64,000 nt of DNA from positions 768,001 to 832,000 of the forward strand of contig CP147779.1 in assembly GCA_037308085.1 (NCBI GenBank). Direction: 5' to 3'. The position numbers and the translations under genes were made by a program. This stretch comes from Promethearchaeati archaeon SRVP18_Atabeyarchaeia-1. GTDB lineage: Archaea; Asgardarchaeota; Atabeyarchaeia; Atabeyarchaeales; Atabeyarchaeaceae. The notes under the pieces were generated by a model. The model saw nothing but the letters and a program-made list of their open reading frames with translations. It searched no databases and was not told the DNA's origin. The stretch's first letter is position 1. Every line of letters begins with the position of its first letter. Below, one piece after another: positions 22,896 through 27,427 of the stretch.

Positions 22896-24038
22896 TTAGC
22901 CTACTCCAATAGTGTTCCCGATACCGGCGACGATGACCGTTGAGCCAGGCTTTGTTCTTTCTTTGATTATCTGTCTGATTCTATCTGAAACCTTGTCGGC
23001 AGCGTCGCTTATTTCCTTCTTCATTGGCGTGACTGCCTCTTCAATTGCTTCCTTAACTAGAATCGCGTCTATGGGTATCTTGTACTTCACGGCGGCTTCC
23101 TCAATCTTGTACTTCTCAGGACCAGGATCTCCTATTGCGGCTCCGACACCCTCAACAACGTCGCCGGTCGTTTCACCCTCAAGTTTACCCGCTGCGTCGA
23201 CCATGATTATCCTGGAGATCTCTCCCTTGAACTCTTCGACCATCTTGGCGATTGCTTCCCCTGGCTTACCAACGCGACTACCTGGTCCCTTCGCCCTAAC
23301 GAGGATCACATTTCTGTCCTCAATCTTGATTTGTGCGACAGTAACCTCCTTCGCAACATCCTCGTTAACAATCGGTTCTAAGCCGCTCTTCTTGTACGAA
23401 TCCACGATGCGGGCGGCGACGAGCGGTCCAAGTCCATCGCCGATAGGCTTGCCTACGGAGAAGGCTTTTAGCGCTTCGAAGTATGACTTGGCGATCCTCA
23501 TGATTTGTGCCAGCTGCATTTGCACCTGCATCGTGATCATCATGTTCTTCTCTTTCTTGCTGAGAAGGTAGTAGTGCCTGATAACCTTGAAGATAAAGTA
23601 GACGGCGCTAGCTGCTTCAATCGACCCTTCGAGGTTCGAGGCCTCGTCCTTGCTGGCAGCAGGAGCCATCCTTGCAACAGCATCCTCGTAGCTTGATTTT
23701 CTAACGTCCAGAATGTGATCCAACCTTTGGATTACCCCGGCTGGATCGAGGCTGACAGGCTCGATTGTCACAAATTCCAGCATTCCAGCAACCGCCTTGG
23801 ATGGATCCTCTGAAGGTTTGCCAACATCCTTCACAGACTTTGTGAGGATCTCCTTAGACTCTACCGACATCCTGTCAAGCTTGAAGAGAGCCTGCTCTAT
23901 CTGCTTCGTCATCCTCCACACCTGAAGAGCATTGCCATAGAAAATGATGAAGAAGAAGAAGACAAAATACAGCATGTTGATTACCAGGCCGAGCGTATTA
24001 TCACTCGAACCGAACAACTGCAGTGGCACCAATCCCAT
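22896..24038 (-). CDS. DUF1512 family protein
   Basis: PVSLDPAG, PIGDGLGP, GPGSRVGKPG, DAAGKLEGE, GAAIGDPGPEK and GIGNTIGVG. Confidence 0.85.
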   Translation of the reverse strand: MGLVPLQLFGSSDNTLGLVINMLYFVFFFFIIFYGNALQVWRMTKQIEQALFKLDRMSVESKEILTKSVKDVGKPSEDPSKAVAGMLEFVTIEPVSLDPAGVIQRLDHILDVRKSSYEDAVARMAPAASKDEASNLEGSIEAASAVYFIFKVIRHYYLLSKKEKNMMITMQVQMQLAQIMRIAKSYFEALKAFSVGKPIGDGLGPLVAARIVDSYKKSGLEPIVNEDVAKEVTVAQIKIEDRNVILVRAKGPGSRVGKPGEAIAKMVEEFKGEISRIIMVDAAGKLEGETTGDVVEGVGAAIGDPGPEKYKIEEAAVKYKIPIDAILVKEAIEEAVTPMKKEISDAADKVSDRIRQIIKERTKPGSTVIVAGIGNTIGVG

Positions 24039-24240
24039 ATTACTGGTCTCCTATCACAGTGTTGATCCTTCTCATTTACTCTCAAAGACTAGCATGATTT
24101 GACTCCAGCTTTTTATAAACTTGTGTGTTTAGGCAATCGAGAAGGCAAGGCATTCGGTCGATTCCCGCAACACCAGAAAGAATCCACGCGCAGCTCCCAC
24201 TACCAGCAACCCACGGATGAAATGCCCCGAGAAACAAAGA

Positions 24241-24418
24241 GTGGCAACAATCCGTGGTCGGAACGGGAACGGGTGTTACCCCTCGCCTATGACCGGCGGC
24301 GCACCGCCAGCCGTCCAAGCTTCCCGAGAGATCTCTCATCTCAGTACAACTTGCACCGCGCGAGGACTTAACTCTCACGGCCGAGGTTGGCACCTGGTCG
24401 GCTCTCACGTGTTGCCAC
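24241..24418 (-). rRNA. rrf: 5S rRNA gene, circularly permuted (3' half 24373-24304, UGCG linker, 5' half 24299-24251), with BHB flanks
   Basis: Joining CCGCCGGUCAUAGGCGAGGGGUAACACCCGUUCCCGUUCCGACCACGGA (49 nt) to AGUUAAGUCCUCGCGCGG...GUACUG...CGGGAAG...GGCUGGCGG (70 nt) gives a 119-nt archaeal 5S with helix I CCGCCGGUC/GGCUGGCGG and helix II GCGAGGG/UCCUCGC. Confidence 0.9.
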
Positions 24419-24445
24419 CAAAGGTACGTGTATTATCAAAGAATA

Positions 24446-27330: not shown

Positions 27331-27427
27331 GGGCGGGTAGTCTAGATTGGTATGATACAGACGGTGAAGTCCGTCGTCAATGTGGCTCGGGACCACGTGG
27401 TCGTGGGTTCAAATCCCACCTCGCCCA
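27331..27427 (+). tRNA. tRNA-Pro(CGG) with a 23-nt intron at 27/28 (27359-27381)
   Basis: GGGCGGG/CTCGCCC acceptor; BHB TGAT/GTCA with GACGG/CCGTC; spliced CGTGG-CTCGGGA-CCACG; GTGGGTTCAAATCCCAC. Confidence 0.92.

Follow-up and report, generated by a model that had tools for sequence, protein, structure and literature searches.

The 5S rRNA gene of Promethearchaeati archaeon SRVP18_Atabeyarchaeia-1 (Atabeyarchaeia-1 below) is permuted, and its leader carries two copies of the splice-site motif CGTGAGA, which raises the question how the 30 nt between the two possible splice sites leave the RNA, and in which order. A first-pass annotation of the window (the whole 64,000-nt stretch of DNA analysed here, to which all positions refer) had proposed an intron that exists only after circularisation and is removed by ordered, recursive splicing.

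The permuted 5S gene and its splice signals

The closed 2,808,651-bp genome has a single 5S-like locus, the permuted gene at 24251-24373 (Table 1), in which the 3' part lies ahead of the 5' part, the native ends are fused and a leader/trailer BHB is found at the new ends. The Rfam 5S model (RF00001) gives only two half-matches of 23.6 and 22.2 bits, both under the gathering cut-off of 38 bits, in keeping with a permuted gene order. The permuted layout was found in at least 17 of the Asgard families sampled and, with a single leader H strand (CGTGA[AG]A or equivalent), in Odin-, Jord-, Frey-, Baldr- and Asgardarchaeum-type genomes and many other Asgard families. A 5S match above the Rfam cut-off was obtained in only 49 of 151 Asgard genomes, and families f1, f2, f4, f5, f7, f8, f9, f14 and f16-f22 gave only paired sub-threshold half-matches. 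For annotation the consequence is that standard tools miss permuted Asgard 5S genes.

Table 1. Features of the permuted 5S locus (positions in the window)
Feature	Position	Strand	Remarks
TATA-like box TTTATAA	24450..24456	minus	about 25-30 nt upstream of leader stem; sequence; putative promoter element
Leader strand of processing stem, GGTGGCAACA	24410..24419	minus	pairs with trailer 24249-24240
Outer CGTGAGA	24403..24409	minus	4-nt H strand and 3-nt bulge; abuts leader stem
23-nt hairpin GCCGA..TCGGC	24380..24402	minus	stems GCCG/CGGC and AGGT/ACCT, loop GCCA; predicted folds
30-nt intervening sequence	24374..24403	minus	candidate nested BHB intron; free of RNA contigs
Inner CGTGAGA	24373..24379	minus	H strand and bulge; final cut 24374|24373; RNA contigs begin or join exactly at A24373
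5S rRNA, 123 nt, permuted	24251..24373	minus	3' part 24373-24301, then 5' part 24300-24251
UGCG tetraloop	24300..24303	minus	caps helix I, fusing the native 5S ends; sequence
5S body end GAC-CACG-GA	24259-24251	minus	sequence
CACG	24253..24256	minus	single exon strand for pairing with either CGTG copy; sequence
Trailer, third bulge base T24250 and stem strand TGTTGCCACT	24240..24250	minus	cut 24251|24250; RNA contigs end or join exactly at A24251
T-rich run CTTTGTTTCT	24230..24239	minus	likely transcription stop, from sequence

Every coordinate and pairing that the first-pass annotation had given for the two CGTGAGA copies and the GCCGA..TCGGC hairpin between them holds on the minus strand. 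Leader and trailer form a stem of nine Watson-Crick pairs and one G-U pair that is present in every predicted fold, and the 5S body is followed on its 3' side by T and TGTTGCCAC (24250-24241, minus strand). The pairing of CACG with CGTG is an alternative to helix III of the mature 5S, as seen in the Rfam alignment, and UNCG-like loops with a covarying stem were found in relatives at the helix I cap. The block with the TATA-like box, CGCTAAGTTTATAAGAA, is kept in Atabeyarchaeia-2, in LC30 and in metagenome contigs. Archaeal transcription terminators are oligo-T stretches, which is the basis for reading the T-rich run as a stop. An element further downstream, ATCCGTGG (24218-24211, minus strand), had been suggested to sequester the 3' splice site; this idea was abandoned, since the element is missing from the trailers of Atabeyarchaeia-2 and LC30 and lies beyond the likely terminator.

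The motif CGTGAGA occurs 282 times on both strands of the 2.81-Mb genome, and the leader pair is the sole pair spaced 10-60 nt. As about 0.7 such pairs are expected by chance genome-wide, the argument rests on position and on relatives and not on the repeat alone. Judged from the sequence, the telling feature of the pair is where it lies: at the splice site, directly adjoining both the hairpin and the leader stem.

Elsewhere in the window a 97-nt tRNA gene with intervening sequences was found (27331-27427, plus strand; Rfam 39.8 bits, with 39 nt and 4 nt skipped), to which ARAGORN assigned no anticodon.

The 30-nt intervening sequence and the RNA contigs

Joining of A24251 to A24403, i.e. at the outer copy, would give h GAC/GUU, H CACG/CGUG, the bulges GA|A and AG|A and h' GCCGA/UCGGC, which amounts to a perfect hBHBh' intron of 30 nt (24403-24374) in an intermediate of 153 nt, with a final product of 123 nt; the fully paired string described in the first-pass annotation was reproduced exactly. 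The BHB core (two 3-nt bulges on opposite strands and a 4-bp helix) is found only in this hypothetical 153-nt intermediate. The flanking helix h has three pairs, one of them G-U, and lies flush with the bulges, and h' can be drawn as five pairs or as 4 + 4 pairs with a 3-nt bulge. On pairing grounds, a complete hBHBh' around the 30 nt would be possible only after the ends have been joined at the outer site. In the linear transcript the motif is incomplete, because the strand that continues from the first bulge toward h' is the trailer and not the hairpin.

The RNA data were assembled contigs of four peat and sediment metatranscriptomes that come from four studies. In the four runs the contigs span 24251-24373 and nothing else, with CCACGGA followed immediately by AGTTAAG (A24251 joined to A24373) and zero cover of 24374-24403 (in environmental relatives). 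Two contigs of 152-153 nt, corresponding to 123 + 30 (k-1), are wrap-around unitigs that cross both the splice joint and the tetraloop, and contig X4 is identical to the window along the 93 nt that it spans, 78 nt on one side of the joint and 15 nt on the other, including positions where other family members differ. The best-covered contigs have two differences from the window and may come from a relative without the insert. Coverage and joint together indicate that the inner-site joint is real and that the 30 nt are missing from abundant RNA: a 123-nt ring-like inner-site product exists and the 30 nt are removed, as had been proposed for the formation of the canonical 5S.

The 153-nt intermediate, for which the first-pass annotation had suggested a search in RNA data, was not seen: the intermediate joint CCACGGA|AGCCGACC and all bases of 24374-24403 are absent from the contigs of the four runs, which drop rare forms. 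Leader, insert and trailer likewise have zero contig cover in these runs, and no loose end reads into AGCCGACC. Because contigs lose rare variants, the missing intermediate is no evidence of absence, and the contigs do not decide the order of the cuts. The wetland RNA runs from the source site (X8-X13) contained almost none of the words sampled.

Possible routes from the precursor to the 123-nt ring

The gene layout, the final joint, the lack of the 30 nt in abundant RNA and the presence of genes for the splicing enzymes are established. For the removal of 24403-24374 we favour recursive BHB splicing through a 153-nt circle, with a probability of about one half, the cut order and the circular intermediate being the parts that we infer. 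In the first step leader stem and trailer would base-pair, as would CACG and the outer CGUG next to the stem; cuts by the splicing endonuclease at GA|U and AG|A (predicted at 24404|24403 in the outer CGTGAGA) would follow, and RtcB would ligate the ends to the 153-nt circle. A caveat for this step is that the leader-side bulge sits in a three-way junction and is no true bulge. In the second step the same CACG would re-pair with the inner CGUG, the hairpin serving as h' and GAC/GUU as h, giving a canonical hBHBh', and a second cut and ligation would free the 30-mer and leave the 123-nt 5S ring.

Another course, which we consider rather unlikely, is removal in one step: CACG would pair with the inner CGUG in the linear precursor and a broad-specificity endonuclease would cut a relaxed motif at the trailer and inner bulges. 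Together with the 5' leader, the outer CGUGAGA and the hairpin would then be lost, no 153-nt circle would form and the insert would be a passenger. The exon-side helix GAC/GUU adjoins the inner CGTG copy, and the inner-site joint is the only joint found in the RNA contigs, both of which agree with this course; the trailer bulge would, however, face a 30-nt branch instead of a continuous strand.

The enzymes bear on the same choice. Genes for two EndA paralogues (genome loci at 202.6 kb and 624.3 kb) and for one RtcB are present; the activities of the enzymes at the 5S sites (cleavage and ligation, respectively) are putative, deduced from the presence of the genes. The EndA paralogue of 209 aa is closest to crenarchaeal catalytic subunits of (alpha-beta)2 enzymes and that of 241 aa is divergent; the pair likely constitutes a broad-specificity heterotetramer. 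Crenarchaeal (alpha-beta)2 splicing endonucleases are known to accept relaxed motifs (PMC5829648), and the resemblance of the catalytic paralogue to such subunits speaks for removal in one step. In Atabeyarchaeia-1 introns were described in 92-95% of the tRNA genes, often several per gene and at non-canonical sites (Valentin-Alvarado et al. 2024, PMC11291895). The enzyme set and the wealth of tRNA introns also agree with recursive splicing.

Folding speaks against removal in one step. In a mini-substrate made of leader, trailer and the helix II-III region, CACG (24256-24253) pairs with the outer CGUG at P ~0.99 in the ensemble, and forcing the inner pairing costs 8.4 kcal/mol in Atabeyarchaeia-1 and 9.0 kcal/mol in Atabeyarchaeia-2, so that the pairing needed for one-step removal is disfavoured by 8-9 kcal/mol in both insert-bearing species. 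A 3-nt bulge separates the outer helix from the 10-bp stem on which it stacks; the inner helix, by contrast, would have a three-way junction to close. For the modelled intermediate, the nearest-neighbour model places the BHB conformer (P ~0.003) 4.6 kcal/mol higher in energy than a helix-III-like fold; for an intron at the same 5S site in DPANN archaea (see below) the matching gap between BHB and alternative fold is 1.5 kcal/mol. In these models the path through the circle has the lower barrier, though at its second step neither motif is the ground state. When the full precursor and the 153-nt circle were folded without constraints, neither the native 5S fold nor the BHB was obtained.

The preference for the outer pairing is shared by a further course, in which the outer BHB is cut, the linear RNA refolds CACG onto the inner CGUG (a nicked BHB), the inner site is cut and RtcB makes one joining only. 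It requires one ligation instead of two and fits the lack of the intermediate joint in the contigs. After the first cut, however, the bulge at the exon 3' end would be a free end, so that the second motif would be only a half-site, and no precedent was found in the literature that could be searched; we regard such sequential cutting with a single ligation as quite improbable.

The insert in relatives and in other archaea

In Atabeyarchaeia-2 the insert is 29 nt long and consists of CGTGAAA, a 22-nt hairpin and CGTGAGA, both CGTG copies being intact. Its hairpin differs from that of the window by five substitutions and one indel (~26% divergence) and still has eight pairs, preserved via a register shift (G4-C20 in Atabeyarchaeia-1, C6-G19 in Atabeyarchaeia-2); the comparison involves only two insert-bearing sequences, with weak statistics, and we estimate that at 25% divergence a 7-mer is retained with at most one change by chance in about four of ten cases. 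Removal in one step leaves unexplained why two species keep the outer CGTG directly against the stem and the hairpin directly against the inner CGTG. The insert was found neither in LC30, which is assigned to the genus of the window, nor in three JGI metagenome contigs of the family, and a scan of the JGI metagenomes yielded no further insert-bearing genes. These four Atabeyarchaeia-type 5S genes show that the insert is dispensable, which is in line with one-step removal, and the insert could be a neutral passenger. The hairpin, whose conservation in relatives the first-pass annotation had made part of a test of its proposal, is kept in Atabeyarchaeia-2 and missing from the four other genes of the family. 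The tree of the syntenic 380-aa neighbour is a star of four lineages without internal resolution and does not distinguish one gain from a gain plus a loss. Ahead of this neighbour gene (22896-24038, minus strand) we observed a promoter-like block, CACACAAGTTTATAAAAAGC (24100-24135, minus strand), that is kept in Atabeyarchaeia-2 and LC30.

The origin of the hairpin gives rise to yet another explanation, namely that the leader (stem strand and CGTGAGA) was once duplicated in tandem and that the insert is the decayed copy, which has no present role or is kept in a minor 153-nt 5S isoform. The hairpin segment GGTGCCAAC (24385-24393, minus strand) is identical to the leader stem strand GGTGGCAAC (24411-24419, minus strand) at 8 of 9 positions (shuffle P ~0.01), a weak hint that the hairpin may have arisen by leader duplication, but the likeness in Atabeyarchaeia-2 is not significant (6/10, P 0.25), and such an origin would be compatible with present two-step splicing. 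A retained isoform would not be abundant, as the insert has no RNA contig cover. As an account of the present state of the locus we consider this explanation very improbable. A mobile element was also considered as the source of the 30-mer and rejected, since the genome contains no other copy.

A comparable layout was found in Asgard family f4 (12 sequences from at least four genera; L087, L088, L090-L098 and L101), in which the leader stem is followed by CAGA[AC]A, a 23-24-nt hairpin and then C[AG]GGAA|AGTYAAG, with CCTG[AG]A as the exon end. The hairpin shows compensatory changes (e.g. CATCTGGA/TCCAGATG versus CATTTGGA/TCCAAATG). The nested design is less perfect here: the outer helix has 3 bp and an A-C mismatch, and a spacer of 2 nt precedes the inner helix. 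That the layout is kept across genera indicates that it can be maintained by selection, and the conserved outer CAGA next to the stem is not explained by removal in one step. Two f4 genomes (G026 and G073) have an extra 5S copy with a different leader (L099, L100).

Further variation in 5S genes was noted in other Asgard families. In family f9 (L085, L086, L089 and L117) the permutation site is a different one and falls within the 5' strand of helix III, which leaves CCGAACCCGGAAGTTAAAC uninterrupted; an additional insert of ~32 nt in the helix IV/V region distinguishes L085 and L086 from L089 and L117. Candidate introns were seen in a 5S of normal order (L084, G133, family f6; an insert of ~30 nt after GTTAAAAGC) and in a permuted 5S (L112, G101, family f21; a hairpin insert of ~30 nt within loop C).

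Non-permuted 5S genes of DPANN archaea (Woesearchaeota and Nanoarchaeota MAGs) carry a 28-nt insert at the same site and with the same build, i.e. one base, a 5-bp hairpin and CGTGAG (L018, L020, L021, L026, L029 and L031; 28-30 nt). Such inserts at the same site indicate that one base, a hairpin and CGTGAG is what an intron looks like at that 5S position. The shared site fits the earlier suggestion that the permutation arose at a pre-existing intron site, a suggestion that stays conjectural, convergence on a favourable site being possible. The ordinary introns of this build also add to the case for recursive splicing in the permuted gene. Two of these six loci are labelled Methanosarcinales, and in L029 loop C of the 5S holds a further insert of ~28 nt.

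Known systems and significance

The DPANN 5S mini-introns, for which neither a published report nor RNA evidence was found, share with the Atabeyarchaeia insert the 5S position (..CACGGA|..|AGTTAAG) and the build, but there the gene order is normal and the intron an ordinary one that needs no prior circularisation. Twintrons and the recursive splicing of long eukaryotic introns also involve a splice site that is regenerated or created by an earlier splicing step; they use self-splicing or spliceosomal chemistry and not a protein endonuclease/ligase pathway, so that the likeness is an analogy only. The SRP RNA gene of Thermoproteus tenax is reportedly permuted and restored by BHB cutting and circularisation, as Plagens et al. 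are said to have described in 2015. It is likewise a non-tRNA structural RNA with a permuted, BHB-restored gene, but a different RNA, and no second intron at the joint is reported there.

The closest parallels come from tRNAs. Nested, order-dependent BHB introns are described for archaeal pre-tRNAs with multiple introns (Tocchini-Valentini et al. 2009 PNAS; Sugahara et al. 2008; both as cited in PMC3728597). They resemble the proposed intron in that a BHB is formed only after an earlier BHB splicing event and in the endonuclease/ligase chemistry, and differ in that they concern tRNAs with linear precursors, whereas here the RNA is 5S rRNA, the first event would be circularisation and CACG would serve as exon strand in both motifs. 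Permuted and intron-bearing tRNA genes are known from Cyanidioschyzon merolae, with ordered, stability-dependent BHB processing (Soma et al. 2007; 2013, PMC3728597), and from Thermofilum pendens (Chan et al. 2011, PMC3218864). In common with the 5S locus they have a permuted gene with a BHB formed by leader and trailer and, if the two-step route holds for 5S, also a circular RNA intermediate, further BHB introns in the same precursor and an order set by motif stability. Their introns, however, lie within one half, fold independently and are not nested according to the authors, whereas here the intron would lie at the permutation joint, and their circle is reopened at the acceptor stem, whereas here helix I is capped by a tetraloop.

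Ordered BHB splicing is thus documented for tRNAs (PMC3728597), and the literature that could be searched yielded no account of an intron located where a permuted gene is rejoined, nor of one anywhere in 5S rRNA. More broadly, and with somewhat less than an even chance in our view, 5S maturation may proceed by obligate recursive BHB splicing in which circularisation assembles the intron and the product is a covalently closed 5S, a design that would have emerged or been retained in two Asgard families (Atabeyarchaeia-1 and -2, and family f4) and that, together with the DPANN introns, would record the descent of the permuted genes from intron-bearing ones. If the two-step route is true, the locus would be a compact natural substrate of <200 nt for the choice of EndA between competing motifs, and the tRNA-splicing enzymes of relatives of the eukaryotes would perform recursive splicing on an essential ribosomal RNA.
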